Source: a virus. From it: a DNA stretch of 64,000 nt. Below, one piece after another: positions 221 to 32,760 of this stretch (position 1 is its first letter; each line of letters begins with the position of its first letter). The stretch is taken from the IMG/VR virus record IMGVR_UViG_3300037606_000123, positions 32,001-96,000 of that record; one strand, given 5' to 3'. The notes under the pieces are model-generated. The model did not search any database. It saw only the letters and a program-made list of their open reading frames with translations, and was not told the origin of the DNA. A program made the translations under genes and the position numbers.

Positions 221-303
221 TACTCTTAGCAAGACTCGAACTTGCACTCTCTTGCGAGAACCGGGTTCTAAAGCCGGGGTGTCTACCATTCCACCATAAG
301 AGC
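221..303 (-). tRNA. trnL: tRNA-Leu(TAG)
   Basis: Minus strand GCTCTTA..TAAGAGT-A acceptor, D-loop GGTAGAC, loop TT-TAG-AA, long variable arm, T-loop GTTCGAGTC. Confidence 0.9.
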
Positions 304-394
304 ATTTGGGTAGAACCAAACGCGTTTTGTCTACCGAGACCTTGTCGTTAAATTATTACTAACCAGAGCGAAACAAGACACAGTTTTAATATTG

Positions 395-468
395 TAGTGC
401 TAACAGGACTCGAACCTGTGACATTCTCGGTATCAGCGAGATACTCTAACCAACTGAGTTATAGCACT
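395..468 (-). tRNA. trnI: tRNA-Ile(GAT)
   Basis: AGTGCTA/TAGCACT acceptor, TCTCG-CTGATAC-CGAGA anticodon arm, ACAGG-TTCGAGT-CCTGT T-arm. Confidence 0.93.
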
Positions 469-604
469 ATGTATTAGAGATTTGGTATTTTAGCACTCTA
501 ATGTTAAAAGTAATACCTTAACTTTTGCTACCATTCATCATGTTTCAGATCATGCAATGGTTGTTATTTTATTATCTGAGTCAAATAACAAACTTCTGAT
601 AGGT

Positions 605-727
605 TGTTGTTGATAGGATTCGAACCTATAATAGTACCATACTCTTTGTATCAAAACAAATACACAGATTTGAACTGTGATAATCAGTCTCTTAGACCGA
701 CCTGTCTACCAGTTTCAGCACAACAAC
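605..727 (-). tRNA. Atypical 123-nt tRNA-Leu(AAG)-like gene with expanded variable region and a second T-arm-like hairpin
   Basis: GTTGTTG/CAACAAC acceptor, Leu-type D-arm, TCGGT-CTAAGAG-ACTGA anticodon arm, three extra hairpins, ATAGG-TTCGAAT-CCTAT T-arm. Confidence 0.7.
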
Positions 728-814
728 GATTTATTAGTCTATCCTAATAGTCATTAGAATTCATTTTCACCTTAAAGTGGAACATCTAATCAACACACTC
801 GTTTTTTTATTTTG

Positions 815-903
815 TTGTATTGACAAGATTCGAACTTGCATAATGTCTGTCCTCAGTATCAAAACCTACTAACAAACCGCGTCACCAATTGCACCACAAT
901 ACA
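815..903 (-). tRNA. tRNA-like gene with a 23-nt anticodon loop (16-nt insertion); Thr(AGT) or Leu(GAG) depending on register
   Basis: TGTATTG/CAATACA acceptor, GTTTG/CAGAC anticodon stem around 23 nt, GCAAG-TTCGAAT-CTTGT T-arm. Confidence 0.65.
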
Positions 904-953
904 AAGAACAATAGTTTTTTGTTCTATTTTACCATTCATTAAATATTCTATTG

Positions 954-1261
954 TACACCAGACGGGACTTGAACCCGTACGCCTTTTAGGGGCAAGGGAT
1001 TTTCATACCACTATAGTTTTCACTACCAACGGACTGTTGTTTGTGGTCTGGACTATCTCTCAATCATGTCGTATAAATACGATTTAGACCACTCCCGTTT
1101 AGTCTCTACACGTTCACCACTATTTTCATAGTTTAGCTTCGCTCGGGATTGCCATTTTAAAGGGTTCCCCGAATTTGAGAGTGTATGCATTTATATCTTT
1201 TCAAATATAACGCTCAATTTTTATTTAAGTCCCTCATGTCTACCAATTCCATCACCGGTGC
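954..1261 (-). tRNA. trnL: tRNA-Leu(TAA) interrupted by a group I intron
   Basis: 5' exon GCACCGG..AGGGACTT, 3' exon AAAATCCCT..GTTCAAGTCCCGTCTGGTGTA; joining restores loop CT-TAA-AA. Confidence 0.93.
1004..1226 (-). mobile_element. Group I intron (223 nt, trnL-UAA type, no ORF)
   Basis: Inserted after U34, ends in G; core motifs CTCAAATTCGGGGAA, GGCAATCCCGAGC, GTAGAGACT, GATAGTCC resemble the cyanobacterial/plastid trnL intron. Confidence 0.9.
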
Positions 1262-1369
1262 ATTTGTTATAAACTATCCTCAAATACTTCACGGTTTATT
1301 ATCCGTTTCATTATATTGTGTCCTATAACATTTTTTATTTAATCCAATACGTCAAAGATCGTTTATCTT

Positions 1370-1600
1370 TTAATCTTTATAGTTCTTTAATTTACAACAA
1401 CGAGCATCATTAAATGAGATGTTATTTTTTCTTGCAAAATTAGAACGCACTCTATCAGAATTGTTATAACCATCTTCTGCATAAACTAATGCTTCTTTGG
1501 TTCTGTTTGCATCTGATGCTACAAACATTGTTTGTTTTACTTTACTTCTGTCTAAAATATCTAATAATTTACAGACAGGTATAATATTTGCAATACTCAT
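1370..1600 (-). CDS. Hypothetical protein (76 aa) heading the left tRNA cluster
   Basis: ORF with A-rich upstream region and TATATTTG box at 1626-1633. Confidence 0.6.
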   Translation of the reverse strand: MSIANIIPVCKLLDILDRSKVKQTMFVASDANRTKEALVYAEDGYNNSDRVRSNFARKNNISFNDARCCKLKNYKD

Positions 1601-1675
1601 ATTTTATTTTATTTATTTTATAAAACAAATATAAGTATTTTTTTTTAATTATAAAAGCATTTAAAAAATAATAAT

Positions 1676-1712
1676 AAAAAAAAATTGGACTCATATTTCT
1701 ATGGTCCAATTT
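1676..1712 (-). terminator. Intrinsic terminator (attenuator) upstream of the left tRNA cluster
   Basis: Minus strand AAATTGGAC-CATA-GAAA-TATG-A-GTCCAATTT followed by a T run. Confidence 0.8.
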
Positions 1713-1734
1713 AATTTATATTTTTTAAATAAAT

Positions 1735-1815
1735 TTAACCCATAGTTTTTTTAGTACATAATAAAATTGTGCACATGCTAATTGTAAGGGTTAATATTTT
1801 ATTTATATTTTTCAT
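1735..1815 (-). promoter_or_regulatory. Leader peptide MKNINKILTLTISMCTILLCTKKTMG (26 aa), putative attenuator
   Basis: Read manually; rich in Leu/Ile/Thr codons; CTATGG at its 3' end is complementary to CCATAG in the terminator 5' arm. Confidence 0.7.
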
Positions 1816-1914
1816 AATAGTTATATGTTATATATATGTAAAAGTTTACTCTTCTTTTTAATATTATTTGAAAAATATATAATATATAATATAAATTATA
1901 AATGCATAATTATA

Positions 1915-2484
1915 ATGTCTAAATATATTTTTAATAAATTAATAAACAACAATGTTAAAATAACAAATACAGTAACTGGTGATATATCATTCTTATCACC
2001 AGATAAGAATGTTTCGTTATTAAATAAACATATAAATAATATAAATACATATATTATTGAAATTTCTACTAGTAGTGATAATAAAAAAATGTATGATAAA
2101 ATAATTATTCCATATAATGAAATAGATTTATTATCATCTGTACCGACATTTGTTGCAACAACACCCGAAGATTTTATTACTGAATTAAATACAAAATATT
2201 TTTTTGTAGTAGTTAACATTTCAATTGATTCTATTTCAGTTAATACAGGACATCTTAGAGTACCTAATATAATTAGGACTAATGGTATAGGTATTATTAA
2301 TAGTATAGTGTATGATTTTACTGTTGCTAATGTTGGAAATTTAAATGGTTTTATTCTAAATAATATTATAAAACCTGGAGAATCTCTTAGTTTCGAAGCT
2401 GGTGCTATAAATAACTATTATGCAAGTAATATTATTGTATATGATGGAACAGATACAGAATTGATAATTATATATAACAATTAA
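1915..2484 (+). CDS. Hypothetical virion-associated protein (start revised to MSKYIF)
   Basis: Beta-rich composition; first gene of a co-oriented fibre-like cassette. Confidence 0.6.
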   Translation: MSKYIFNKLINNNVKITNTVTGDISFLSPDKNVSLLNKHINNINTYIIEISTSSDNKKMYDKIIIPYNEIDLLSSVPTFVATTPEDFITELNTKYFFVVVNISIDSISVNTGHLRVPNIIRTNGIGIINSIVYDFTVANVGNLNGFILNNIIKPGESLSFEAGAINNYYASNIIVYDGTDTELIIIYNN

Positions 2485-2487
2485 ATT

Positions 2488-2895
2488 ATGAGCACAAATA
2501 TATCTATAAAATTAAATAAGGGGTTTATAGCAGTTGAAAATTATGATGCATTACCATCTGTTGTTACTAATATTAATGGACATTATTGGGTTATTGCTAG
2601 TCAAGGAATAGCCTGGTTACCGTATTCAGTAGGTGGTACATATCACCCAAAAGGTATTTATTTTTCTGATGGTTTCACATGGACACATATAGATACACCG
2701 TTTCAAGCAACACAAGGAGAAGTAAATATTGGATTGAATGATGACAAATTTTTAACACCTTCAACATTCAATGAGTCTGCATTAATAAAGTCTAAAGTGA
2801 ATATAGCAACAAATCAAATTTTTTTAATTGATCAAGCTGCAATATTAATAAAAAATCAACGAATATTTGTTGATTTTTTAACAAAAATACAATAA
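2488..2895 (+). CDS. Hypothetical tail-fibre-associated protein
   Basis: Tight operon spacing; G/W-rich N-terminal part. Confidence 0.55.
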   Translation: MSTNISIKLNKGFIAVENYDALPSVVTNINGHYWVIASQGIAWLPYSVGGTYHPKGIYFSDGFTWTHIDTPFQATQGEVNIGLNDDKFLTPSTFNESALIKSKVNIATNQIFLIDQAAILIKNQRIFVDFLTKIQ

Positions 2896-2985
2896 ATAAA
2901 TAAATAATATTTGTTGATTTTATAACATAAACGCATTAAATAAATAATATATAAATATACAAATAATAAATAAACAAATAAATAA

Positions 2986-3192
2986 ATGCCAACAATAGAA
3001 GAAGCAATTATAAATTTAACCACAGAAACAACGGCATTATTAGATGCAGTTAATATTTCAAAATTAACGATAGAGTCTAATATTGCTGCAGCTGTTTTAG
3101 TTTCAACAAATGCTGCAATCGAACCATTGTTTGTTGTATCAACTAATCTTATAAATACACAAGCATTACTTGTAACGTTTATTAGTTTATAA
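2986..3192 (+). CDS. Small helical tail-fibre cassette protein
   Basis: N-terminus (LTTETTALLDAVN) resembles that of the next gene (LTTATTLLTNAVA). Confidence 0.6.
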   Translation: MPTIEEAIINLTTETTALLDAVNISKLTIESNIAAAVLVSTNAAIEPLFVVSTNLINTQALLVTFISL

Positions 3193-3210
3193 AAAATAAA
3201 TAAAATAAAT

Positions 3211-3810
3211 ATGTCAACTACAGAACAATTATTAGCAGATTTAACCACAGCAACAACTTTATTAACAAATGCAGTTGCCGTACAACAAATAGCAGTAAAT
3301 GATGCAGTTTCACAATTTGCTTCTGTAATTAATAAAGTTAATACAGAATTGAATTATGTAGATAATACATCAGATGCAAACAAATCTGTTAGTAATGCAA
3401 CAACAGAAGCATTATCTTTTAAACAGAACACACTTGTGTCTGGCGTAAACATAAGTACGGTCAACGGTTTATCTATATTAGAAGGTCAACCATTAGTAAT
3501 AGAAAGAAGTGCAACATCACTCGTAAGTCTTGAATACGATAATAGAGATACTTTAAGATTAGAACCTTTGTTACCAAGCATATTAGATGATTCTGTTGTT
3601 GTTGAAGGTATTGGTTTATTAATGTTTGTGACAACACAGCTTGAACCAGATGATGATGAAACATGTTTTACGTCATTGATAGGACAATGGTTATTATCTG
3701 TTCCTGCACCAGATTTATTAGACGCTTGGGCAACCGATGAAAGACATTTTAACGATGAACTTGACGAAGATGAAGTAACAAGATTATCAACAAGTTTTGT
3801 TGGTTTATAA
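3211..3810 (+). CDS. Tail-fibre cassette protein (199 aa)
   Basis: N-terminal coiled segment then a fibre-like KQNTLVSGVNISTVNG motif. Confidence 0.6.
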   Translation: MSTTEQLLADLTTATTLLTNAVAVQQIAVNDAVSQFASVINKVNTELNYVDNTSDANKSVSNATTEALSFKQNTLVSGVNISTVNGLSILEGQPLVIERSATSLVSLEYDNRDTLRLEPLLPSILDDSVVVEGIGLLMFVTTQLEPDDDETCFTSLIGQWLLSVPAPDLLDAWATDERHFNDELDEDEVTRLSTSFVGL

Positions 3811-3833
3811 AAAAAAAATATAAAAATATAAAA

Positions 3834-5915
3834 ATGAGATTATCAACAAGAAGATTATTAACAGCAGTTAAATCGGGATTAGTCCTTGGTCCAGAATTAG
3901 AAACAAGGTTGTTAGATGCAGGTGTTAAATCTGGATTTTTAGAAGCACTTTCAATGCGTAGTGAAACTAAAAGTTTGGCTGCTAATCCGGTAGCAATAAC
4001 GGCTATTGTAGCAAGTCCGATAGCAACAGATTCAGTTTTTGGAGCAGCTAGTATAAATAATTCAACAGCTGCACAAGCAATGGCTGCTAGTCCTGTAGCA
4101 ATGCTTAATGTAACGCTTAACTTGCCAACTTTAACTAAAATTATAAACAATCAGGTGGCGTGGAATATATACTTACAAAGCCCTTATGCTGTAGATAATA
4201 TCGGTTATGCTGCTGCTGTTTTTGCTGGATTAAATTTAATAACATATCCAGATAGAACTTTTGTATTTGCAGACACTGTAGCAATGGCACAAATCATAGC
4301 TAGTACTAATGCAATTAGATCTGTTATTGAAGATGATGATTTAGTTTTAAGAACATCAGTCAATAGTATTGGTATGGAGTTAGTAGCTACAAATGCAACC
4401 GCTTTAAGTTATATAACAAATTCTCAAAGAGGTATGAGTGCTTGTGCAAACAGTGCTATAGCTATGTTTGAATTATCTTCAAAGTCATTGGCTATAGTTG
4501 CTATATCTAATAGTAAAATAGCAGTAGATACAATATATGCTAATAGTGTTGCAAGAGCTTCTTACAAAGCAAGTGCATTCTTTGTAGCAAATTTAAAAAA
4601 CACAATTGCAAACCTAGCAGGAATTAACCCATTGTCCTTTCCAACAATTGACGATATTATAAATAATAATATTGCATTAACTGCGGTTAACGCAAATGAA
4701 GGTGCATCAGAAGCATTATCTTCAAGTAGTGCTGCAATGCTAACATTAGGGACAAGTGCTAATCTTTCTATTGTAACAGGTAATACAGTTATTATGGCAG
4801 CCTTGGCAAGTAATAATACTGCAATGGTTAATATAGCTACAAGTACAAACTTTGCACTTGTGAAAGGCAATGCAGTAATAATGACTGCTCTTGCAGGTAA
4901 TTCAGCAGGCGTAACAGCGTTATCTACCCACGCTAATTTAACACTTGCCATTAATGACCCTATTGGAATGGCTAAATTATCAGCTAATTCTATATCAGTT
5001 GGAATCTTAGTAGGAGCTACTTCAACAGTTGGAGTAAGAGATATTATATTTAACTCTGAAACAGCGATGGTATCAGTGTCTAACAATACTGTATCAATCA
5101 ATGCTATTAATGCAAACGCTACAAGATGGACGGAATTTAAAGAAAGCCCTTATTATGAAGACAATGCTTTTGCAATAACTTATAATCTTGCAGGTATAAC
5201 TCTTATAATGTCAACTTTTACTCAAATGATAGCTAAAGCATCAGCTTTAACATTAGTAAATGCAAACGCAGGAGCATCAGAAGTACTAGCAACTAATTCA
5301 GATGCAATGCTTACCCTTGCTACAAGTGCAAACTTTGGTATAGTAGTTGGAAATAGTTTAATTATGACAGGATTCGTTACAAATGCAGCAGCACTTACAG
5401 CGCTTGGAGGACATTCAAATATTAATGTAGCAATAGGAAATGCTGTAGCAATTGGATTAATAGTTAATTCAGCACCAGCAATGGCAAGTTATGTTGCAAA
5501 TAATACAATCCTTGCATCACTGTTTGCTAGTTCAGTAGCTAAAACAGCTATATTTACTTCTACTGTAACAGTAGCAGCATTAGCTGCATCAGCATCAGCT
5601 GTTACATATTTGAAATCTATCCAAACATTATTATTATCATCAACTACCCCAACAGCTGGGAATTGGGTTTCATTTGGAACTGGAGTACCAGCTAAAATAT
5701 TAATGGTAACTTACAGACAACAGGGAATTGGTGCAATTGAAACACCAATTAGATTCCGTTCCCCAGAGGGTCCACAATTAAGTATGGTAGGTACAGCAGC
5801 AATTGGTGATCAGATTGGTAGAACACATATTGGTGCTTATAGTAACTTAGAATTTAATACTACTGCTATTAGTGCAATCACAGGATCAGGTATTGGTTAC
5901 ATAAGCATGCTATAA
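3834..5915 (+). CDS. Ala-rich repetitive 693-aa protein, putative virion/fibre protein
   Basis: Three related modules containing (F/L)AG(L/I) plus many short amphipathic Ala-rich repeats. Confidence 0.7.
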   Translation: MRLSTRRLLTAVKSGLVLGPELETRLLDAGVKSGFLEALSMRSETKSLAANPVAITAIVASPIATDSVFGAASINNSTAAQAMAASPVAMLNVTLNLPTLTKIINNQVAWNIYLQSPYAVDNIGYAAAVFAGLNLITYPDRTFVFADTVAMAQIIASTNAIRSVIEDDDLVLRTSVNSIGMELVATNATALSYITNSQRGMSACANSAIAMFELSSKSLAIVAISNSKIAVDTIYANSVARASYKASAFFVANLKNTIANLAGINPLSFPTIDDIINNNIALTAVNANEGASEALSSSSAAMLTLGTSANLSIVTGNTVIMAALASNNTAMVNIATSTNFALVKGNAVIMTALAGNSAGVTALSTHANLTLAINDPIGMAKLSANSISVGILVGATSTVGVRDIIFNSETAMVSVSNNTVSINAINANATRWTEFKESPYYEDNAFAITYNLAGITLIMSTFTQMIAKASALTLVNANAGASEVLATNSDAMLTLATSANFGIVVGNSLIMTGFVTNAAALTALGGHSNINVAIGNAVAIGLIVNSAPAMASYVANNTILASLFASSVAKTAIFTSTVTVAALAASASAVTYLKSIQTLLLSSTTPTAGNWVSFGTGVPAKILMVTYRQQGIGAIETPIRFRSPEGPQLSMVGTAAIGDQIGRTHIGAYSNLEFNTTAISAITGSGIGYISML

Positions 5916-5949
5916 TTATAATTTAAAATACAGAATTATTGATCTTTAA

Positions 5950-5989
5950 ATAAACACATCAAATAAAATATTTTATTTGATGTGTTTAT
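5950..5989. terminator. 40-bp perfect palindrome, probable terminator hairpin
   Basis: ATAAACACATCAAATAAAAT|ATTTTATTTGATGTGTTTAT. Confidence 0.6.
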
Positions 5990-6098
5990 ATTTATGTACT
6001 CATAAAACAATTACAGTATTTTATTATAATTGTTAAAAAAAATATAAATAATATTTAATATATAATATTATAATAAGAAAAAATTAACTAATAACAAC

Positions 6099-6662
6099 AT
6101 GGCATTACCACATTTTAATACCGTATTATCACATAATACAAATGCTGAACCTATTTATAAAGCATTATTTGAATTAACATTTGATTTACCTCCAGTTTTA
6201 GGTCGTTCTATAACTGATGTACAATTGATGTTAGAGAATGCTCGAAATATAATGTTACCATTAACACCAGATATTGAAGTACAAGTACAACGTTTTAAAT
6301 TTAGTACAAGAGCTTATGTAACATTACCATCAGAAACACATATTGCTGATTTATCTATCAATTTTAATTTAAATGAAAATGATAGAAACGCAGTATTTGT
6401 ATGGAATATATTAAAATCATGGTACGATTTAGCATGGAATTCACAAACAGGTGAAACACATACTAAAACAGAAATGGTTGGAAATATTATAGTAAATCAC
6501 CATAATAAAAAAGGACAAGTTATTAGACGTGTTACTTATCGTAATGTACAAATTGTTGGTGTAAGTGAAATCGAATTAAATTGGGACTCTCCAACAGACA
6601 TATTAGAATGTTCTGGTAAATTTATCGCAGATTACTGGGAAGATTTATATATTGATCAATAA
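6099..6662 (+). CDS. Tail tube protein (T4 gp19-like)
   Basis: Size and motifs EPIYKALFELTF, WNILKSWYDL, ELNWDS, FIADYWED are typical of myovirus tube proteins. Confidence 0.75.
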   Translation: MALPHFNTVLSHNTNAEPIYKALFELTFDLPPVLGRSITDVQLMLENARNIMLPLTPDIEVQVQRFKFSTRAYVTLPSETHIADLSINFNLNENDRNAVFVWNILKSWYDLAWNSQTGETHTKTEMVGNIIVNHHNKKGQVIRRVTYRNVQIVGVSEIELNWDSPTDILECSGKFIADYWEDLYIDQ

Positions 6663-6733
6663 TCAGCAATATATTTTCTTAAACAAATTTAAATAAAAAG
6701 GTATAATAATAAAATGTTATACCTTTTTTATTT

Positions 6734-8287
6734 ATGTTAAAATTAGAAATACAAAATATATTAAATATATTTATAAATAGTGGTAAAAAAATAAGTACAA
6801 GATTGACATATGATTTTTGGATAAAAAATTATCCATTAATTTATGATGAAATGATTGAGTATAACGCTATTAATAATTTAAAATGTAGTAATCTATCAGA
6901 AATTATATATTGTGTACTACATGATATTACAGTTAAACCAAAATGTAATGTATGTGGTATAAATATAACTAATTATAAAAATTTTAATTTAGGTTATGTT
7001 AAAACATGTTCTAAGAAATGTACTAATTCAGATCCAGATAAAATAAAAAAAGCATTAAAAAAATATAAAGAAACATGTATTGAAAAGTATGGTGTTGAAA
7101 ATATTTCACAATTAGATAGTATACAGAAGAAAAAAGAAGAAACGATGTTATTTAATTATGGTGTTAAATATAACAGTCAACGTACAGAAGTAAAACATAG
7201 TATTTCTGAACATATAACAAAAGTTAATATAAATAAAAATAAGTTAATGAGATTTAATTTATTATCAGTGTTAAAAAATATTGATATTGTAAATTTATAT
7301 AATGATAAAAATAGGTATTTAACAGATTTGTCATGTTTATCATGTAATAATATTTTTAGTATATCACAACATTTAGCACAAGTTAGAAATAAATCAAATC
7401 ATATTATATGTACAATTTGTAATCCTATATTGAAATATACATCTAAAGGTGAAATTGAATTATACGAATTTATAAAACAAAATTATGCAGGTAAAATTAT
7501 AACCAATAGTAGATCTATTATTGGTCCATTAGAATTAGATATTTATTTACCTGAATTAAATTTAGCATTTGAATTTAATGGGTTATATTGGCATTCTGAA
7601 ATGGAAAAAGATAAAAAATATCATTTAAATAAAACTAAATTATGTAATGAAAAAAATATTCAATTAATACATATTTATGAGGATGATTGGTTATATAAAG
7701 AATCTATTATTAAAAGTAGGTTAAAGAATCTTTTATATAAATCAAAACGTATATATGGAAGAATATGTGAAATTCGTACAGTATCTACTATTGAGCGCAA
7801 ATTATTTTTAAATAATAATCATATACAAGGTGATTGTATATCGAAATATAATATTGGATTATATTTTAATAATGAACTAATTTCTATGATGACATTTGGA
7901 AAATCTAGATTTACAGAAAATTTAGAATTATTAAGATTTTGTAATAAATTAAATACGACAATTATTGGTGGTGCAAGTAAATTATTTAAATATTTTACAA
8001 ATAATTTTAAATATGATAATATAATATCGTATGCTGATAAAAGTTGGTCTAATGGAAATTTATATAAACAATTAGGATTTGATTATTTAAATGATACAAA
8101 TCCTAATTATTATTGGATTGTTAATGGAATTAAATCAAATCGGTTTAATTGGCAAAAACATAAATTGGTTAAAATGGGGTATGATAAAAACAAAACAGAA
8201 ATACAAATTATGCATGATTTAGGGTATTATCGTTTATATGATTCTGGTTCACAAATATGGGAATATAAAAAAGAGATTCAAATTTGA
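6734..8287 (+). CDS. Putative free-standing homing endonuclease (Zn-binding CxxC motifs, Vsr/PD-(D/E)XK-like domain, C-terminal Hef-like domain)
   Basis: ELDIYLPELNLAFEFNGLYWH, LIHIYEDDW, FLNNNHIQG, ELLRFCNK, SYADKSWSNG. Confidence 0.7.
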   Translation: MLKLEIQNILNIFINSGKKISTRLTYDFWIKNYPLIYDEMIEYNAINNLKCSNLSEIIYCVLHDITVKPKCNVCGINITNYKNFNLGYVKTCSKKCTNSDPDKIKKALKKYKETCIEKYGVENISQLDSIQKKKEETMLFNYGVKYNSQRTEVKHSISEHITKVNINKNKLMRFNLLSVLKNIDIVNLYNDKNRYLTDLSCLSCNNIFSISQHLAQVRNKSNHIICTICNPILKYTSKGEIELYEFIKQNYAGKIITNSRSIIGPLELDIYLPELNLAFEFNGLYWHSEMEKDKKYHLNKTKLCNEKNIQLIHIYEDDWLYKESIIKSRLKNLLYKSKRIYGRICEIRTVSTIERKLFLNNNHIQGDCISKYNIGLYFNNELISMMTFGKSRFTENLELLRFCNKLNTTIIGGASKLFKYFTNNFKYDNIISYADKSWSNGNLYKQLGFDYLNDTNPNYYWIVNGIKSNRFNWQKHKLVKMGYDKNKTEIQIMHDLGYYRLYDSGSQIWEYKKEIQI

Positions 8288-8298
8288 ATCTCTTTTTT
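8267..8298. terminator. Bidirectional terminator between convergent genes
   Basis: Perfect palindrome AAAAAAGAGATTCAAA|TTTGAATCTCTTTTTT. Confidence 0.75.
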
Positions 8299-8304
8299 TA
8301 TTAA

Positions 8305-8547
8305 TTATTTTTTAAATTTATTCATAAAAGAACCGGCATTAAAATTACCGATACCGGAAGATGATTGTGATTTTTTATGTTCTTCTTCTTGTTTTTTTCT
8401 TTGTGATGCTAATTCATCATTACGTTTATTTAGACGTTCAACAAATGCTTCAAATTTCCAATATGGTAATTTTTCAATAACATCTATTTGTTGATGTGTT
8501 TGCATTAGAAATTCAAATTCGTTGTCTAATATATTGCTTAAAGGCAT
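8305..8547 (-). CDS. Baseplate hub assembly protein (T4 gp51-like)
   Basis: FLMQTHQQIDVIEKLPYWKFEAFVERL resembles the LM..H...I..M..WE motif; follows the gp26-like gene. Confidence 0.55.
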   Translation of the reverse strand: MPLSNILDNEFEFLMQTHQQIDVIEKLPYWKFEAFVERLNKRNDELASQRKKQEEEHKKSQSSSGIGNFNAGSFMNKFKK

Positions 8548-9523: not shown

Positions 9524-9600
9524 GCTTTATTAATATTTTTTTATTATAATTTATATATTTTATAAATGTCTTTACCTATTTTTAATTAGATAATAAAAAA

Positions 9601-12958: not shown

Positions 12959-13145
12959 AATGCAAATATAATAATAATAAATTAAAAAATAGCAAAATTT
13001 GGTAATATTCTTGTACTACCATATTTCAAAACACATATCTCAAATTTTTGTAGCATGTGTATTACTTTTTATTTATATAGAAATAAAAAACCGACTAAAA
13101 TACGTTTAGCCGGTTTATCTATGAATGTTAAAACATTCGTGCCAC

Positions 13146-13540
13146 GGTGGAGGTGGAGGGATTCGAACCCCCGTTTTTATAAGAAAATTCATTATTTTCT
13201 ACATGTTTATTTATCTTATTCACAAGATAACAAAATATTTATTTTTTGTTATAACAAACATTTTATTCAATTTTAAAGTTTGAATAAAAAACAACTTTTT
13301 GTTTACTGATTGGTTAATCCTTTCGGATCGACTTAAGCTGTTGCTAATTCAAAAGCTGTCTCAGTTACTACAGCTGTAGAAGAAACTTCTACTGAACCAC
13401 CTAAGTCAGAAACTAATTTGTTAAAAGAAGTTTCGTTTTTAAAGTTTGCATTTATTTTTTAGTACTTTATTTAAGTGTATTTACAAAAACACTACATGCT
13501 TATATTGATCATACATTACAAATCAAATCCAAACACCCCC
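13146..13540 (-). ncRNA. ssrA: tmRNA; tag ORF 13449-13333 encodes ANFKNETSFNKLVSDLGGSVEVSSTAVVTETAFELATA
   Basis: 5' GGGGGTG pairs with 3' CACCTCC-A with G3.U70; T-arm GGGGG-TTCGAAT-CCCTC; resume context ATAAAT-GCA. Confidence 0.9.
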
Positions 13541-24707: not shown

Positions 24708-24763
24708 ATTTTAATAATATATAATAATAGAACAAAAATATAAATAATAAACAACAAATAAAA

Positions 24764-25780: not shown

Positions 25781-26894
25781 TTATTAATTCGTTTAGTGAT
25801 TGTATAAATATTGTTTTAACTTTAACATATGCATATTCAGGAATTATAATACTATCATGTATTGTAATTATAGGTAAATTATTATATTCAGCTAAAACAT
25901 TAGGAATTAATTTATTAAAAATAAAATTAGATTCAATTCTTTGTAATTTATGTGCAATAATTTTATAATTTTTATTTTGTTTTTTATATGCACAGATCCA
26001 TTCATAGACATCAGGATATAAATTATTAAATAATATGTTCCAATAATTTTTAGACATGTTACGACCAAATAATACTGAATAAATATTTACTTTAACTTCT
26101 TTTCTATCTTTACCACTTATATCTTTTATTTTATCATATATAACACCAGTCATAACATCTGTATCAAATCCATTAAATTTAATGAATCCATTTTGTCTCA
26201 TTAATAAATATAAAAAAAACGGCTGCGAATTAGTAATATCAATTTCTTTTATTTTATCTTTTCCAAAAGTTAAAAAATTATTTCTAATATCTTTTTTTAA
26301 TATTGTGTAATTTGTATGAAATCTACCATAATTATCAAAACTATAATAAATATCTTTAATAGCAATTTTATTACATGCATTTAAATTCATTAAATGTGCT
26401 TTATCATTTATATCTATATTATTATCTATCCACTGTTTAGCCCCAACAATATTTAAATCCATTTTATATAAATCTTTAATTAATTTATTTTTCAATGTAT
26501 CTGAAATTAAATTATTAGCTATATTTAATTGTATCGTTTTATCATATAATTTTTTTGGTACATCTACAGTAATTGATAAATACCCGTTTCTTTTTGTTTT
26601 TTCTGTTAATTTATAACATTTAGATTTAATGCCAGAACTATAATTCTTAAATAAGTAAATAAAATTATATTCCATTAAATATTCGATATACTTAACATAT
26701 GAATTACCATATAAAGATTTCAAAACACGAGAATTTAATTTCATATTATCTTTATTAAAACATATATATCTATTCAAAAACATATCAATAATATTTATCA
26801 TATTAATAGTTTTTAATCTTGTCTCTTTATAATTAATATACTTTTTAGTATAAATATCTTTTAAAATAGGACTAATATATTTTAAATTTTGCAT
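25752..26894 (-). CDS. Family-A polymerase palm/fingers-like protein without exonuclease domains
   Basis: DNYGRFHT, EIDITNSQP (motif A), KEVKVNIYSVLFG (motif B), TIHDSI (motif C). Confidence 0.6.
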   Translation of the reverse strand: MQNLKYISPILKDIYTKKYINYKETRLKTINMINIIDMFLNRYICFNKDNMKLNSRVLKSLYGNSYVKYIEYLMEYNFIYLFKNYSSGIKSKCYKLTEKTKRNGYLSITVDVPKKLYDKTIQLNIANNLISDTLKNKLIKDLYKMDLNIVGAKQWIDNNIDINDKAHLMNLNACNKIAIKDIYYSFDNYGRFHTNYTILKKDIRNNFLTFGKDKIKEIDITNSQPFFLYLLMRQNGFIKFNGFDTDVMTGVIYDKIKDISGKDRKEVKVNIYSVLFGRNMSKNYWNILFNNLYPDVYEWICAYKKQNKNYKIIAHKLQRIESNFIFNKLIPNVLAEYNNLPIITIHDSIIIPEYAYVKVKTIFIQSLNELIIKNTSLDLL

Positions 26895-27118
26895 ACAACT
26901 ATTAGTATAAATATTAATAAAAGTTTAAAAAATGATTTTTAATATTTATAATATTTTAATTATTTTTACTTATATATCATATGTGTCCACTTTATTTTCA
27001 AGGAAAATTAAACTTTTTTATTTAATACAATATAATAATGTTATTATTTTTTAGTTTTTATTTTTTTAATTCAAATAATTTATTATCTTTGTAATGTTCA
27101 ATTAATAAATATAAAAAA

Positions 27119-28201
27119 ATGTCACAAAAAATTTCACAAAAAGATATAGTGTTTGATTTTTTAAAAACTGTATCACCAACACAATCATCTTTATCTGTAT
27201 GGGAAGAGTTTGAAACAGCTAATCCAGGGTTTAATAAAAAAAATTATAGTTTTTATAGAAATCAAGCAATAAATGATGGGATATATGTACAAGTTAAAAA
27301 AAGACTTGTAACTGATATAAATACATTAAAAGTATTTAACGAAAAAGAATTAGTTGTTAAAACAATTAATCTTGATACTATTGATCCTGCAAAATTTAAA
27401 GCAATACCAACAGGTACACCATTTGATAAAATTGCATCTAAGCGTTTAGGAATAATGCCTGGAACTGCATATATGATTACAGGTGAATCTGGTGCAGGTA
27501 AAACAACTGTATCTACAAATATTGCAGATTATTTAAAAGAAAACAATGAAGGATATACTGCGGGATTTATTTCAGGTGAAATGGATGAAAATGATTGGAC
27601 AGAAGAATGTTTAGACAATCCAAGATTAGCTGATTTAGAAACTGTATTTTTATTAGATTATTTAGATGCTTCAAATTATGTTGAAATTTTAGTTGAAAGT
27701 TTATCAAAATGGAATTTTGTAATTCTTGATTCGTTTGAAGTTGTAATTGATCAATTAAAAGATATAAAAGGTTGGACTGCAAAAAAAGCAGAAGCAGAAT
27801 TAATTAATATGCTCAGAAAAGCAGCAGCAGAATCTAATTGTACAGTTCTTGCAATTCAACAATATACAAAAGGTGGTACATTTGTTGGGTCTAATAAAAT
27901 CAAACACTTATTAACAGGAATGATTTTTGTTAGATTTGATAAACACGGAGATCGTTATATCGAATTTGTTAAAAACCGTCGAGGTGGACATATGATAGGA
28001 AAACATATGTATTTTACTAAAAATAAAGAAACAGGTAGAATTGAATTTGATGATTTACGATTTGAAAATGATGCAGCTTTAGTATCTTTTAATCAAGATG
28101 AAGCTACAAAAATTCAAGAAGAAGTTGGTATCTTTGATGATTTAATTATGTTACAAGCAGAAGCGGCACAAAAACGTAGAGAAGAATTATTAGCAATTTA
28201 A
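27119..28201 (+). CDS. RadA/Sms-like RecA-family ATPase
   Basis: ITGESGAGKTT, ISGEM, VILDSF, TKGGTFVGSNKIKH, KNRRG. Confidence 0.8.
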   Translation: MSQKISQKDIVFDFLKTVSPTQSSLSVWEEFETANPGFNKKNYSFYRNQAINDGIYVQVKKRLVTDINTLKVFNEKELVVKTINLDTIDPAKFKAIPTGTPFDKIASKRLGIMPGTAYMITGESGAGKTTVSTNIADYLKENNEGYTAGFISGEMDENDWTEECLDNPRLADLETVFLLDYLDASNYVEILVESLSKWNFVILDSFEVVIDQLKDIKGWTAKKAEAELINMLRKAAAESNCTVLAIQQYTKGGTFVGSNKIKHLLTGMIFVRFDKHGDRYIEFVKNRRGGHMIGKHMYFTKNKETGRIEFDDLRFENDAALVSFNQDEATKIQEEVGIFDDLIMLQAEAAQKRREELLAI

Positions 28202-28242
28202 AAATAATTAATAAAATATTTTTTTTATTAAAAAAGAATTAC

Positions 28243-28250
28243 TATATTTG
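28243..28250 (+). promoter_or_regulatory. Bacteroidota-type -7 promoter box TAnnTTTG (also + 27084, 61185, 63005; - 166, 1626, 12963, 13569, 15259)
   Basis: Recurs in intergenic DNA just upstream of co-oriented genes. Confidence 0.7.
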
Positions 28251-28287
28251 TTAAACAATATAAATAAATAATTATATAAATAATATT

Positions 28288-29427
28288 ATGGCACAATCAA
28301 AATTAAATAGTACAAACGTTTCACAAGAACAGTATAATGAATTTAAAGAAAAAGCATTAAATCATTCGATTGTTAGACGTGTTATTTCATTCAAGGATTT
28401 AACATTAATAAGCGATAGTATTATCGAGTATAGTGGTGTGCAATTTCAAATGACAGAAAATGCATTTAAATCATTAGTGAAAATATTAGGTTTATCTAAT
28501 GGTGTAATGGAAACAATTACAAAACAATTAGGTGAATCAGTAACAAATAAATTGTTATCAATGATGAAAGTTGCAATGAGTAGCGATACATCAAAAAATA
28601 CAATTTGTATTTTAGTAGATAAAAAAACAAGTAAAATAGTTGGATTTAGTAAATCAGCTCAATCAATTTTATCAAACAACGCATATTTTACATTGTTTGA
28701 ACAAACAATGAATAACCATACAGGAATGCACATTAAAAATATGGGTATTACTGAAAATGGAAATATTGAAATTTCTGTTTTAAATGACAATTGGGAATTT
28801 AATGTTGGGGGATTGAGTGATGAATATTTTAAATCTGGTTTAGTATTTATTAATACACCAGATTCAACAATTATTAATCCATTTAACGAACGTCTAGTTT
28901 GTACTAATGGTATGGTTGTTTCTGATAATGGTTTGTCATTAATCCTTAAAAATGGAGATGCAAATTCTATAAGTGGTTTCTTTGATGCTGTTCGTAATTT
29001 AAGTGGTACAATTAATTTTGAAAAAGAATTTAAAAATCGTATCATTAAAATGATGGACACAAAAGCATCATACGGCGAAGTTCTTAGTGTTAGAAAAAAT
29101 GTTGAATACCACGTTTCAAATATTAGTCACCCTGATGTAAGAGCAAGCGTAGAACAATTTATTCCAACACAATATATTCATCGTTCATTTTTAGATCAAA
29201 AAGTGGATATTTATAAAATTGATAGTAAGAATTATGCGAAAATTAACACGATGTTAACGGTTTGGGATTTAGTAAATAGATTGACAGATTTATCATCACA
29301 TCCTGTTAAATACGGTTTTGAACTACAACACGGAAATAGTTCTATTTTTGAATTACAAAAAGCGGCTGGTAATTTATCATTTAAAAAGCAATACGATTTA
29401 GAATGTGCGGTTAAACAAATTTTCTAA
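28288..29427 (+). CDS. DUF932-like protein
   Basis: RLVCTNGM signature. Confidence 0.6.
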   Translation: MAQSKLNSTNVSQEQYNEFKEKALNHSIVRRVISFKDLTLISDSIIEYSGVQFQMTENAFKSLVKILGLSNGVMETITKQLGESVTNKLLSMMKVAMSSDTSKNTICILVDKKTSKIVGFSKSAQSILSNNAYFTLFEQTMNNHTGMHIKNMGITENGNIEISVLNDNWEFNVGGLSDEYFKSGLVFINTPDSTIINPFNERLVCTNGMVVSDNGLSLILKNGDANSISGFFDAVRNLSGTINFEKEFKNRIIKMMDTKASYGEVLSVRKNVEYHVSNISHPDVRASVEQFIPTQYIHRSFLDQKVDIYKIDSKNYAKINTMLTVWDLVNRLTDLSSHPVKYGFELQHGNSSIFELQKAAGNLSFKKQYDLECAVKQIF

Positions 29428-29510
29428 ATATTATTAGTTGAACAATTAAACCTATTAAGAAATTAATAGGTTTTTTTTATATATATAATATATAAAAAAA
29501 ACGTAATAAT

Positions 29511-30218
29511 ATGCATCAAAAAAATTTAACACCAATACAAGATGGTGAAATTGTTAAATTACAAAAACCTTTAAATAATACATTTTCTGATCATGTTAAA
29601 AATAATGATGGAATTGTATTGGCCACATGCGATAATTGTAAAGCTGAAAATGTTAATATTGAAGATCACATATGTAAAACATTAGTTACATTACCTAATC
29701 CATCAGATATGGTTACAACTATAGAAAATTTTAAAAAAATAATAAAAGAAAATATGTTTACAACAAGAAAAGAATTTATTAATTCATTAAATGAAAATTC
29801 AAACAATACAGAATTAAAAACATTAGAAGACAATATGTATTTTGTGATTAAATCATCGGAATTACGAATTACTAAAAATTCATATAATGATGGTGAAACT
29901 GGTGAAACTACACACAGTGATACTGGTTTAGAAAAAAAACAATATAAAAACGTACAAGAAATTTTAGATCAAATAGATAGTCGTCTTACAAGTGATAGTT
30001 TAACTATTATGGATGATAGAATTATTTGTAGTTATTTAGGTGGAATGTCTGATGATAATAATTATGTTGCAACTGATTCATTAAAATACAATCAATGGAA
30101 AAATGATGAATTAGAATTGTACACATTTGATTATGATATAGTTATTGAAATTGTAGTTAAAACTAATTATACATCTCAAGATTTATCTAATTTATTAGGT
30201 ATTGCAAATTATGATTAA
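29511..30218 (+). CDS. Hypothetical protein with internal capsid-targeting-like motifs
   Basis: MVTTIENFKKIIKEN-MFTTRKEFINSLNEN. Confidence 0.7.
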   Translation: MHQKNLTPIQDGEIVKLQKPLNNTFSDHVKNNDGIVLATCDNCKAENVNIEDHICKTLVTLPNPSDMVTTIENFKKIIKENMFTTRKEFINSLNENSNNTELKTLEDNMYFVIKSSELRITKNSYNDGETGETTHSDTGLEKKQYKNVQEILDQIDSRLTSDSLTIMDDRIICSYLGGMSDDNNYVATDSLKYNQWKNDELELYTFDYDIVIEIVVKTNYTSQDLSNLLGIANYD

Positions 30219-30236
30219 TAAATAAATAAATTAGAT

Positions 30237-30890
30237 ATGAAAGAATATATATTTTTAAGATATGCAAATCAACCTAATCCACAAGTTACTGAGGTATTGG
30301 TAAATAGTATAGTTAAACAAGGTGCAAAACCTTTTTTTACATCATTACCTGGTGTTATGATTACATCGTTTAAAAGTGATTTAACTGAAAGTGAAATACG
30401 TGGAAAATTAGATATTTTAGATATTTTATATGATATAGTAGAAAAGAAAAATATTGTTGTAGATAGTCCTACAAGTACTAATACAACAACAACAAATAGT
30501 AAAGAAGAATTACAACGTGAAATGGATGCAGCAGTAGAATCTGAAGATTATGAAAAAGCTGCAACATTAAGAAATAAGATTGAGCAATTATATGGTCCAA
30601 ATGAATCATTAATTTTAAATTTTAATTTTTTTAAATACCTTAAAGAAAATATGTCAACAGAATTATCAGTTGAACGTAAGATTGAAATATTAGCTGAATT
30701 ATCTGAATGGTCTGGTGGTTATGATCCAACAGAAATGTCGTTTGATCCTAATTATAGTGATGATAGTGATGATAATGAAACACTTAATCAATACATTGAA
30801 AATTATATTTTACAAGATGAAGTAGAATTAGTTACAGATTGGTTTGTTGATTTACAGAATGGTGCTGATGATATAAAAAAATATCAATAA
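30237..30890 (+). CDS. Protein with UvrB/UvrC (UVR) coiled-coil motif
   Basis: LQREMDAAVESEDYEKAATLRNKI. Confidence 0.7.
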   Translation: MKEYIFLRYANQPNPQVTEVLVNSIVKQGAKPFFTSLPGVMITSFKSDLTESEIRGKLDILDILYDIVEKKNIVVDSPTSTNTTTTNSKEELQREMDAAVESEDYEKAATLRNKIEQLYGPNESLILNFNFFKYLKENMSTELSVERKIEILAELSEWSGGYDPTEMSFDPNYSDDSDDNETLNQYIENYILQDEVELVTDWFVDLQNGADDIKKYQ

Positions 30891-30892
30891 TT

Positions 30893-31648
30893 ATGATAAC
30901 AAATATTAATGAGTTTAAAGTATACTTAAATGAAAATGTTGATATGTCAACATTTTCAATCATACAAAGAAGTGATGGAATAATATCTAAATATGGTCAA
31001 GAAAATAATTTAGATATAGATGATTGTATTGAAAATTTAATATATTATAATATTATATCTGATAATTATACAGAAGACGAATTACGTATATTATTAAATA
31101 ATTTAAAATTAAATCAAACACACACATTTGGTTCTAGATGGACACAAACAGAAGTCACAAAAACACATTCTAATGATACATTATTAGAAAATGTACGTAT
31201 TCCACAAGAAGTTGAATTAAAGTTTGGTGTGAAGTATAAAAACATCAATTGGAATGATTTAAATCTTATTAATGTTGGTGTCTATGGTGATACTGTATTT
31301 TACGGTATTCAAATACCAGGGGAGAATAATAAATACAATAAAGGAATTATTGTTGATCTTAAAAATGAAGATGAATTAAATCGTATTGATATAATGATGG
31401 ATTTTAATTTACAAGGTTTAGGATTAGGATATAAAATTTATAAAAAAATTATAGAACAAACTGGACACATTTATTCATTATTTAATAAAAGAGTTAATGA
31501 TGATGCTATTCCTAAAATTTGGGAAAAATTAAAAAACGATTCTGATATTGAAGTACATTCAAACAAAGATGGTGAAATAGCAATTTGGAAAAACATGAAT
31601 GATAATGAATTAAAAAATAATTTAATTTCTAAAATAAATAACAAATAA
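30893..31648 (+). CDS. Putative internal head protein with GNAT-like segment
   Basis: N-terminal MITNINEFKVYLNE; LQGLGLGYKIY. Confidence 0.65.
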   Translation: MITNINEFKVYLNENVDMSTFSIIQRSDGIISKYGQENNLDIDDCIENLIYYNIISDNYTEDELRILLNNLKLNQTHTFGSRWTQTEVTKTHSNDTLLENVRIPQEVELKFGVKYKNINWNDLNLINVGVYGDTVFYGIQIPGENNKYNKGIIVDLKNEDELNRIDIMMDFNLQGLGLGYKIYKKIIEQTGHIYSLFNKRVNDDAIPKIWEKLKNDSDIEVHSNKDGEIAIWKNMNDNELKNNLISKINNK

Positions 31649-31733
31649 TTTTTATATTAAATTAATTATTAATATCTTTGTAAAGAATTTAATAAAGGAG
31701 TAAACTTTTTTAATATATAACAATATAATAAAC

Positions 31734-31811
31734 ATGAAAAGAATTTTAAACATACAAGCAGTTATAGGTCAAGCCGGGAGAAATCTACCGACTCAGAATT
31801 TGTATTGTTAA
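31734..31811 (+). promoter_or_regulatory. Leader peptide MKRILNIQAVIGQAGRNLPTQNLYC (25 aa), putative attenuator
   Basis: Read manually; GACTCAG (31790-31796) is complementary to the terminator 5' arm CTGAGTC (31840-31846). Confidence 0.75.
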
Positions 31812-31834
31812 TTTTTAAATATTTAACTACTACT

Positions 31835-31867
31835 AAAACCTGAGTCAATTTGATTCAGGTTTTTTTT
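31835..31867 (+). terminator. Attenuator terminator before tRNA-Gly/Ile/Ala
   Basis: AAAACCTGAGTC-AATTT-GATTCAGGTTTT plus further T, 9 nt before tRNA-Gly. Confidence 0.85.
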
Positions 31868-31876
31868 ATTTATAAT

Positions 31877-31947
31877 GCAAGATATAGCTTAATGATAAAG
31901 CGCCACACTTCCAATGTGGAGACGGAGTTTGATTCTCATATTTTGCT
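31877..31947 (+). tRNA. trnG: tRNA-Gly(TCC), atypical acceptor/T stems
   Basis: CCACA-CTTCCAA-TGTGG anticodon arm; GCAAGATA/TATTTTGC can form 8 bp; weak T-stem. Confidence 0.75.
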
Positions 31948-31961
31948 CTAAATTATAATAT

Positions 31962-32033
31962 GCACCATTAATTCAATGGTAGAGTAAATGTCTTATATAC
32001 ATTCGGTCATAGGTTCGATTCCTATATGGTGCA
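31962..32033 (+). tRNA. trnI: tRNA-Ile(TAT)
   Basis: GCACCAT/ATGGTGC acceptor, AATGT-CTTATAT-ACATT, ATAGG-TTCGATT-CCTAT. Confidence 0.9.
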
Positions 32034-32049
32034 CAAATAAAAAAATAAC

Positions 32050-32122
32050 GGGTTGATGTTGAAGATGGCTATCATAACGGTTTTGCAAATCGTTGTCCTG
32101 GGTTCAAGTCCCAGTCGATCCA
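32050..32122 (+). tRNA. trnA: tRNA-Ala(TGC)
   Basis: ACGGT-TTTGCAA-ATCGT; G3.U70 in GGGTTGA/TCGATCC. Confidence 0.88.
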
Positions 32123-32170
32123 AAATGTTTTTATTATTTAATATATAATAAAAACAAATATAAATTAAAC

Positions 32171-32563
32171 ATGAATCAAAGATATTTTAAAATAACAGCA
32201 AATGATGTAAATGACGCAAAACAATTAAAAACAATATTACTAACAAAAAAGTTTTATCCAGAAACAACATCAACACCACCATTACCAGCAACAGTAACTG
32301 GAGGGTTTGATTACAGAAAATTGTTTCTTGTTATAGAAATTCAAAATGATGGTATTATTGTATTGACTAGATCAGAATATACTGTTGCACAATTTAATGT
32401 AAATGTAATACCAACATTAGATTGGACAACAAGATATAATTTATCTTTAGCACCAACAATTACATCATTACCAGAATATACAGAATATCGTAATGGTAAA
32501 AATACAACAACTTCAATACATGCGTTTTTAAACTATGATTACACTTTAACAAATAATAAATAA
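32171..32563 (+). CDS. Hypothetical protein (start revised to MNQRYF)
   Basis: The track start overlaps tRNA-Ala; ATG at 32171 has an A-rich context. Confidence 0.65.
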   Translation: MNQRYFKITANDVNDAKQLKTILLTKKFYPETTSTPPLPATVTGGFDYRKLFLVIEIQNDGIIVLTRSEYTVAQFNVNVIPTLDWTTRYNLSLAPTITSLPEYTEYRNGKNTTTSIHAFLNYDYTLTNNK

Positions 32564-32568
32564 TTAAA

Positions 32569-32625
32569 ATGAAAAAAACAAATAAATACCAGCAAAATAA
32601 CTTACAACAATTATATAATTGTTGA
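32569..32625 (+). promoter_or_regulatory. Gln-rich leader peptide MKKTNKYQQNNLQQLYNC (18 aa), putative attenuator
   Basis: CAG CAA..CAA CAA codons; TTGACAGA (32622-32629) is complementary to TCTGTTAA (32658-32665). Confidence 0.82.
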
Positions 32626-32652
32626 CAGAAATTGTATTATTAAAATTTTTAC

Positions 32653-32686
32653 AAAAGTCTGTTAATATTAATTAACAGACTTTTTT
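32653..32686 (+). terminator. Attenuator terminator directly before tRNA-Gln
   Basis: AAAAGTCTGTTAAT-ATTA-ATTAACAGACTTTTTT. Confidence 0.88.
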
Positions 32687-32688
32687 AT

Positions 32689-32760
32689 TGTCCTATAGTG
32701 AAATTGGCATCACACGTCCCTTTGAAGGATGTATTTCAGGTTCGAATCCTGATTGGACAA
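32689..32760 (+). tRNA. trnQ: tRNA-Gln(TTG)
   Basis: TGTCCTA/TTGGACA, CGTCC-CTTTGAA-GGATG, TCAGG-TTCGAAT-CCTGA. Confidence 0.92.

Follow-up and report, generated by a model that had tools for sequence, protein, structure and literature searches.

Short leader reading frames with the layout of candidate transcription attenuators precede tRNA genes of a huge phage and its relatives

tRNA units of the window and their upstream regions

The window analysed here, a 64-kb stretch corresponding to bases 32001-96000 of a 123-kb IMG/VR virus contig (24% G+C) that is estimated to represent about one third of the genome, contains three transfer RNA (tRNA) units, unit 1 on the minus strand and units 2 and 3 on the plus strand. 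The first-pass annotation of this DNA had described a common layout upstream of all three, and the same layout was recovered in our analysis: a short open reading frame (ORF) of 18-26 codons, a segment near its 3' end complementary to a terminator, and a hairpin-U-tract terminator located 22-27 nucleotides (nt) past the stop codon. Judging from their sequences and those of their relatives, the three elements are likely to be ribosome-mediated (leader-peptide) transcription attenuators placed before phage tRNA genes. The tRNA genes were called with ARAGORN and Rfam, some anticodons and loops being assigned by eye, and the positions of all features are collected in Table 1. The span of 221-1261 originally given for unit 1 holds the tRNA cluster, but its leader and terminator (1682-1815) fall outside.

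Table 1. Features of the three tRNA units in the window
Feature	Position	Strand	Basis or remark
Unit 1, promoter-like motif (AACTTTT, 0-5 nt, ATATATA)	1829-1846	-	Just 5' of leader 1; putative promoter
Unit 1, leader ORF 1, 26 codons + stop	1735-1815	-	ATG-initiated ORF; Leu 4, Thr 5, Ile 4
Unit 1, candidate antiterminator strand	1730-1745	-	Predicted pairing; overlaps leader stop codon
Unit 1, intrinsic terminator	1672-1712	-	Found by folding; stem-loop 1712-1682 + T run
Unit 1, 76-aa (amino acid) ORF between terminator 1 and tRNAs	1370-1600	-	TAnnTTTG box ahead, near 1626-1634
Unit 1, tRNA cluster 1: Leu(UAA), two odd tRNAs, Ile(GAU), Leu(UAG)	220-1261	-	ARAGORN + Rfam
tRNA-Leu(UAA) with 223-nt group I intron	953-1261	-	Intron sits in anticodon loop
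Odd tRNA, unassignable or Thr(AGU) with 16-nt insert	814-903	-	ARAGORN/Rfam
Odd Leu(AAG)-like tRNA	605-727	-	By eye, CT-AAG-AG anticodon loop, about 50 extra nt in variable region
tRNA-Ile(GAU)	394-468	-	ARAGORN/Rfam
tRNA-Leu(UAG)	220-303	-	ARAGORN/Rfam
Unit 2, promoter-like region	31674-31719	+	Read from sequence + motif search; putative function
Bacteroidetes-type TAnnTTTG box	31674-31681	+	Unit 2 upstream region
AACTTTT...ATATATA motif	31703-31719	+	Unit 2 upstream region
Unit 2, leader ORF 2, 25 codons + stop	31734-31811	+	ATG-initiated ORF
Unit 2, candidate antiterminator strand, core GACTCAG	31789-31797	+	Ends 14 nt before end of stop codon
Unit 2, intrinsic terminator	31835-31869	+	Terminator scan + folding; 13-bp stem 31835-31863 + T run
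Unit 2, tRNA-Gly(UCC), tRNA-Ile(UAU), tRNA-Ala(UGC)	31877-32122	+	ARAGORN/Rfam
Unit 3, leader ORF 3, 18 codons + stop	32569-32625	+	Begins 5 nt after stop of 130-aa ORF
Unit 3, predicted switch region	32605-32630	+	Folding; hairpin 32605-32624 + antiterminator strand 32620-32630
Unit 3, intrinsic terminator	32653-32688	+	Terminator scan + folding; 14-bp stem 32653-32684 + T run
Unit 3, tRNA-Gln(UUG)	32689-32761	+	ARAGORN/Rfam

The terminator of unit 2 lies 23 nt after the leader stop and ends 13 nt before tRNA-Gly, and that of unit 3 lies 27 nt after the leader stop and ends 4 nt before tRNA-Gln. No promoter-like element was seen between units 2 and 3, and since leader 3 follows the preceding 130-aa ORF so closely, the two units appear to be arranged in series. 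A 98-aa ORF starts 24 nt after tRNA-Gln(UUG); the gap is too short for a separate promoter, so its expression must rely on read-through as well.

Of the three units, unit 1 has the least clean layout. Its terminator, starting 22 nt after the leader stop, comprises 13 base pairs (bp) with one bulge (-12.9 kcal/mol) followed by nine T, and was missed by simple terminator scanners because of the bulged stem. A distance of 420 nt, occupied by the 76-aa ORF, separates the terminator from the tRNA genes. This ORF has no Pfam match, and neither does a 67-aa ORF found at the same position in the related locus L004; no homology was found between the two.

Within the window, the strict upstream motif (AACTTTT and ATATATA separated by 0-5 nt) is confined to the regions ahead of leaders 1 and 2, with 0.2 occurrences expected by chance, and the upstream region of unit 2 is similar to the regions 5' of the homologous leaders in loci L001 and L011. 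A looser form, with AAC or ACT before the T run, stands ahead of seven leaders of the relatives and is also present elsewhere on the contig and in the relatives; the motif is therefore probably a general promoter class. In the relatives, only some of the leaders are preceded by the motif or its looser form.

Leader codons and tRNA genes in the window

The composition of long ORFs of the contig was used as background for codon enrichment. In leader 3, four of the 17 codons (positions 8, 9, 13, and 14) are for Gln (P=0.001), and in leader 1 Leu, Thr, and Ile account for 13 of 25 codons (P=0.005). Codons 7-15 of leader 2 (31752-31778) include two ATA, two Gly, two Ala, and two CAA codons; if the tRNA-Gln located further downstream is counted, 10 of the 24 codons of this leader are cognate (P=0.02), and so are eight of the nine codons of the core, while the count for Ile, Gly, and Ala only is 7/24 (P=0.15, not significant). 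Short ORFs are common in AT-rich DNA, so that the window statistics by themselves give moderate support only; the decisive evidence comes from the relatives.

Codon and tRNA covariation in related phages

At the DNA level, the only matches in the phage collection were tRNA-sized and came from huge uncultured phages, including LR745206.1 (634 kb) and LR756502.1 (642 kb). Phage genomes of this size, the largest then known, belong to the Mahaphage clade with predicted Bacteroidetes hosts (Al-Shayeb et al. 2020, PMC7162821). The genes of the window are devoid of Shine-Dalgarno sequences, and TAnnTTTG boxes are present upstream of transcription units, in agreement with a Bacteroidetes-type host. 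In such hosts, the lack of Shine-Dalgarno sequences is expected. No close relatives of the phage were found using the neighbouring 251-aa protein or exact patterns (terminator 2 and two of the tRNAs), and all comparisons therefore rest on distant relatives.

The relatives were traced in steps. Starting from the tRNA-sized matches, all tRNA genes of LR745206.1 and LR756502.1 were located and the clusters scanned; an exact-motif scan of IMG/VR combined with whole-record tRNA searches added three phage genomes, and a metagenome scan added one contig. Altogether, 33 distinct leaders from eight phage genomes or contigs were collected, 21 in a first set and 12 in a held-out set. In LR745206.1, a 16-codon ORF with seven Gln codons is followed by a terminator directly before three tRNA-Gln genes. 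Likewise, in LR756502.1 a 27-codon ORF containing three ATA, three Gly, and two Ala codons and a terminator precede genes for Ile(UAU) and Gly(UCC)x2. The same cassette, consisting of a short ORF, a gap of 18-34 nt, a strong terminator, and tRNA genes, was found in the multi-tRNA clusters checked in LR756502.1, LR745206.1, and the three IMG/VR phages.

The leaders fall into seven families named after the tRNA sets behind them: Glu/Tyr; Ile(UAU)/Gly/Ala; Pro/Asp (plus Gln); Gln; Phe/His/Lys/Trp; Ser/Arg; and Asn/Leu/Thr/Val/Ile. The leaders of the window find their counterparts among them: homologues of leader 2 stand before Ile(UAU)/Gly/Ala clusters in L001, L011, L134, L139, and L142, homologues of leader 3 with runs of Gln codons stand before tRNA-Gln arrays in L002, L005, and L144, and leader 1 fits the Asn/Leu/Thr/Val/Ile family of L004, L012, L020, and L143 in composition and position. 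In the first set of 21 leaders, all seven families are enriched in the amino acids of their own tRNA set (binomial P from 6e-3 to 6e-16), and the true pairing of leaders to tRNA sets ranks first of 5040 permutations. Of the 12 held-out leaders, 10 were given the correct tRNA set on the basis of composition only (P=2e-7), and one of the two misses was due to a wrong overlapping ORF chosen by the script. Codon/anticodon covariation in related jumbo phages, which the first-pass annotation had named as a check, is thus present and strong.

The correspondence extends to differences within families. Leader 2 of the window carries three Gln codons and is followed by a downstream tRNA-Gln, both of which are lacking for the homologous leaders in L001 and L011. 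In L019, the Pro/Asp leader retains its Gln codons, and there the tRNA-Gln genes are located within that cluster. The share of ATA among Ile codons is 8/11 in leaders ahead of Ile(UAU) and 2/11 in those ahead of Ile(GAU) (Fisher P=0.03). Some tRNA genes were foretold by leader codons and then located, namely Trp(CCA) in a stretch of L003 that had seemed empty, as well as Ser(GCU) genes in L003 and L010, which fit the many AGT codons of the Ser/Arg leaders. The latter genes (L003:4390-4476 and L010:3032-3116) were recognised by eye as class II tRNAs with a GCT anticodon; they had been missed by ARAGORN, and their best Rfam score was for tRNA-Sec. Automatic tRNA counts for these phages are consequently too low. 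Metagenome matches to the upstream motif, about 100 of them unrelated, served as a negative control; almost all lay in AT-rich DNA, and a single one carried a short ORF, a terminator, and tRNA genes, with a leader of the Ser/Arg type.

It could be argued that the elements are operon-end terminators lying beside chance short ORFs or small genes (for a small RNA or a micropeptide), with the tRNAs expressed by leaky read-through and nothing being sensed. ORFs of 18-26 codons are indeed common in DNA with 24% GC, leader 2 alone is not significantly matched, and the contig contains about 25 similar terminators, most at gene ends, several of which follow RNAs or ORFs without an ATG start. However, such an arrangement fails to explain why seven families track tRNA sets over eight genomes, and equally the within-family differences and the antiterminator covariation described below. 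This explanation is highly improbable, being strongly disfavoured already by the present data.

In another conceivable scheme, the leader would be an RNA sensor that is not translated and whose codons bind tRNAs directly, like a T-box with several specifiers. The match between codons and downstream anticodons would be expected in this case as well, and a terminator/antiterminator platform is typical of T-box leaders too. However, Rfam scans of both tRNA regions with E-values up to 10 revealed no T-box or riboswitch family, nor was a conserved Stem I or T-box sequence apparent. Moreover, the ATG, the open frame, and the position of the stop relative to the terminator are kept across the 33 leaders, and the control codons come in runs for several amino acids, as in multivalent leader peptides. 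We consider this scheme very unlikely.

In LR745206.1 and LR756502.1, a gene for a class I Glu/Gln-type aminoacyl-tRNA synthetase (PF00749; L002:2970-4568, E=3e-100, and L005:2899-3999, E=3e-93) comes directly after the Gln leader and the tRNA-Gln array. Here the Gln attenuator may gate both the tRNAs and the synthetase, which is consistent with sensing of charged tRNA and connects the phage design with attenuation as known for synthetase genes.

Antiterminator and terminator covariation

Complementarity between the 3' part of the leader ORF and its own terminator arm exceeds that of shuffled sequences, with a Fisher-combined P=1e-10 for 20 units and P=6e-6 for 11 further units. Pairing with the own arm is also stronger than with arms taken from other families; the mean advantage is 3.0 kcal/mol, and it is seen in all seven families (Wilcoxon P=8e-5). 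Compensatory changes were observed in the Asn/Leu family, where the leader reads GAGGG when the arm is CCCTC and TTCGGG when the arm is CCCGAA. In all families, the paired strand either overlaps the stop codon or ends 3-39 nt short of the last base of that codon, and the distance from the stop to the terminator is 18-34 nt in all units. Since the antiterminator strand lies inside or overlaps the end of the ORF, a ribosome at the stop codon would mask it, whereas it would stay accessible when the ribosome stalls at the control codons.

In the window, the candidate antiterminator of unit 2 forms a perfect 7-bp core with the terminator 5' arm (-12.2 kcal/mol, p=0.007 versus shuffles), and only one of 17 terminator arms from other families pairs with it equally well. 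In the nascent RNA of this unit folded without the terminator 3' arm, the antiterminator helix is present in the minimum-energy structure. For unit 3, the corresponding pairing amounts to -9.3 kcal/mol (p=0.027 versus shuffles) and is equalled by none of the 17 arms of other families; in addition, the hairpin 32605-32624 pairs the second pair of Gln codons with the end of the ORF and overlaps the antiterminator strand, which spans the stop codon. The antiterminator of unit 1 is predicted to form two 6-bp helices with the terminator 5' arm (-10.3 kcal/mol compared to a shuffle mean of -3.1, p=0.002). It is the least secure among the three, because a first duplex test revealed no special pairing, which appeared only after three bases 5' of the stem were added. 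In the nascent RNA of unit 1, an alternative partner of the antiterminator segment is the control-codon region, a pairing comparable to helix 1:2 of the trp leader. The extra hairpin that joins the control-codon region to the ORF end in the nascent folds of units 1 and 3 completes the picture, and the predicted folds of units 1-3 correspond to the classical 1:2 / 2:3 / 3:4 arrangement.

Proposed mechanism

Attenuation of the trp/his type, as the first-pass annotation had proposed, is supported by the codon/tRNA covariation, by the antiterminator covariation, and by the position of the paired strand. Transcription would begin at a promoter 30-60 nt upstream of the leader, except for unit 3, whose transcript would come from unit 2, and a ribosome would translate the short leader. 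With plentiful aminoacyl-tRNAs for the control codons, the ribosome would reach the stop and cover the ORF-end segment, allowing the terminator 22-27 nt downstream to form, and the polymerase would stop before the tRNA genes. When a cognate tRNA is scarce, the ribosome would stall on the control codons, which in units 1 and 3 would also open the hairpin holding the ORF end; the freed segment would then pair with the terminator 5' arm, and the polymerase would read through into the tRNA genes. The outcome would be negative feedback on the supply of exactly those tRNAs that are encoded downstream. Units 2 and 3 would act serially on one transcript, the Gln codons of leader 2 also serving the tRNA-Gln behind unit 3. 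The sequence layout and the two kinds of covariation are observed, while translation of the leader, stalling, and the direction of the response are inferred from them.

A number of points weigh against this reading. The analysis is computational throughout, and with no Shine-Dalgarno sequences present, translation of the leaders gets no support from the sequence. Besides the insufficient enrichment of leader 2 on its own, the match at the strict wobble level is weak for several leaders, and leaders of the same family share descent, so that the 33 leaders amount to about seven independent comparisons. The terminators are thermodynamically more stable than the antiterminators, and the switch would therefore depend on kinetics. 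In unit 1, an internal TAnnTTTG promoter may bypass the attenuator, and the tRNAs are possibly transcribed independently of it. Finally, the earlier statement that every tRNA unit of the phage is gated in this way holds for the three units of the window but not for solitary tRNA genes: leader and terminator are both lacking for tRNA-Thr(UGU), Cys(GCA), and Met(CAU), which lie on the same contig 2-3 kb to the left of the window, and the cassette is likewise absent from solitary Met, Arg(UCU), and Cys tRNA genes in the relatives.

Some of these points would also suit a model in which translation of the leader matters and the readout is different or of reversed sign, acting through RNA processing, RNA stability, access of Rho, or fast translation favouring read-through in a feed-forward manner. 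The direction of the response is argued from geometry only, the terminators are thermodynamically dominant, and unit 1 has its internal promoter. However, the presence of a terminator-complementary strand in or across the ORF end in all families is the classical arrangement, and the co-variation of strand and terminator is hard to explain unless the pairing is used. Such a model is unlikely, and we favour attenuation with negative feedback.

Concerning the signal to which the attenuators would respond, host defence, codon-usage mismatch, and starvation could all be triggers. A mismatch between the codon usage of a phage with 24% GC and the tRNA pool of its host would explain the design equally well as the tRNA-cleaving defences (anticodon nucleases such as PrrC, or PARIS) suggested by the first-pass annotation. 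As a tentative and rather doubtful extension, the leaders might together constitute a distributed, codon-resolved homeostat of the tRNA pool, in which about seven leader sensors, some of them serial, each gauge the decoding rate of one codon subset and release the matching tRNAs (and in relatives a synthetase) and so replace tRNAs lost to anticodon nucleases or host shut-off. If so, the phage would possess a built-in counter-defence sensor that is at the same time a remedy for its codon usage.

Comparison with known systems

Leader-peptide attenuators are well known from amino-acid biosynthesis operons, including trpL, hisL, leuL, and pheL, and the multivalent thrL and ilvL. The phage elements share with the trpL type a short ORF rich in cognate codons, an intrinsic terminator, and an antiterminator strand that would be masked by a ribosome at the ORF end, as well as, in units 1 and 3, a hairpin over the control codons resembling helix 1:2. 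Like thrL and ilvL, several phage leaders would sense more than one amino acid. Unlike biosynthesis attenuators, they have tRNA genes as their cargo, so that the loop would close on tRNA supply rather than amino-acid supply. They also differ in their setting, a huge phage with a Bacteroidetes-type host, and in that the tRNA repertoire is split among several sensors, two of them in series. In place of the usual cargo of attenuators, genes of amino-acid biosynthesis or synthetases, the window has tRNA genes; a synthetase gene follows the tRNAs only in relatives. This departure is the point of novelty; the mechanism itself does not require the usual cargo.

The closest precedent with respect to cargo is the pheST attenuator of Escherichia coli with its pheM leader, which controls an aminoacyl-tRNA synthetase. 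It senses charged tRNA through leader translation and controls a component of the translation apparatus, as the phage elements would, and the Gln leader of L002 and L005 also precedes a synthetase gene. However, in pheST the synthetase alone is under control, while in the phages tRNA genes are the first cargo and, in the window, the only recognisable one. The phage leaders would further resemble T-box riboswitches in monitoring tRNA status by a terminator/antiterminator switch. T-box leaders are not translated, make direct contact with uncharged tRNA, and carry conserved Stem I and T-box motifs, whereas the phage leaders keep an ORF.

The common view is that tRNA genes are expressed constitutively or under growth-rate control and that phage tRNAs simply supplement codon usage. 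The closest published example in which supernumerary tRNA genes are turned on when translation is impaired, as proposed here, is the trn operon of Anabaena sp. PCC 7120, a long tRNA array induced under translational stress and controlled at its promoter, where direct repeats are bound by the repressor TrcR (PMC8421152, PMC10272220). These two papers mention no leader peptide, attenuation, or terminator, and the papers on Lak phages and on huge phages (the latter PMC7162821) do not mention leaders, attenuation, or terminators either. No published description of leader-peptide control of tRNA genes was found in the full-text literature searched, which did not cover subscription-only papers. The elements would represent a known regulatory mechanism applied to an unexpected gene class. 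The cassette is conserved across the largest known Bacteroidetes phages and is therefore a property of the clade, not an oddity of a single contig.

If attenuation operates as proposed, the speed at which the codons of a set of tRNAs are decoded would feed back on transcription of the corresponding genes, so that the tRNA pool is read out directly and specifically. Such control would go some way towards explaining how huge phages that carry dozens of tRNAs keep from making them needlessly, and provide a testable link between phage tRNAs and host defences that target tRNAs. The leaders would also be compact, programmable sensor parts whose specificity is set by their codons.

Other features of the tRNA regions

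The group I intron of tRNA-Leu(UAA) in unit 1 was identified by Rfam at 1028-1236 (RF00028, 72 bits); an intron of this group in the anticodon loop of tRNA-Leu(UAA) is familiar from cyanobacteria and plastids. For the odd tRNA at 605-727 of the minus strand, ARAGORN called a tRNA-Gln with an intron, contrary to the assignment as Leu(AAG) made by eye. Directly downstream of tRNA-Leu(UAG), at 53-121 of the minus strand, a DUF805 RNA motif was detected (RF03081, 70.8 bits, cut-off 51.1), beyond which no long ORF occurs for several hundred bases.

In unit 2, a TATAAT sequence at 31871-31876 was considered as a promoter of tRNA-Gly and rejected, since the start would fall inside the tRNA. Beyond unit 3, a sequence resembling T4 late promoters, TATAAATA, is located at 33116-33123 of the plus strand, 10 nt before an ORF (33134-33571, plus strand) whose product matches Hsp20/alpha-crystallin weakly (E=8e-4, narrowly missing the Pfam cut-off).

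A 385-kb relative (L146:1133-1205, IMG/VR record G003) encodes a lone tRNA whose anticodon is CUA and which may be an amber suppressor; no CUA tRNA was seen in the contig of the window. Stop-codon recoding has been reported for Lak-type phages, which the CUA tRNA would fit. The window also encodes a phage transfer-messenger RNA at 13145-13540 of the minus strand (RF00023, 73 bits), with the tag peptide ETAFELATA and its own terminator at 13116-13088.

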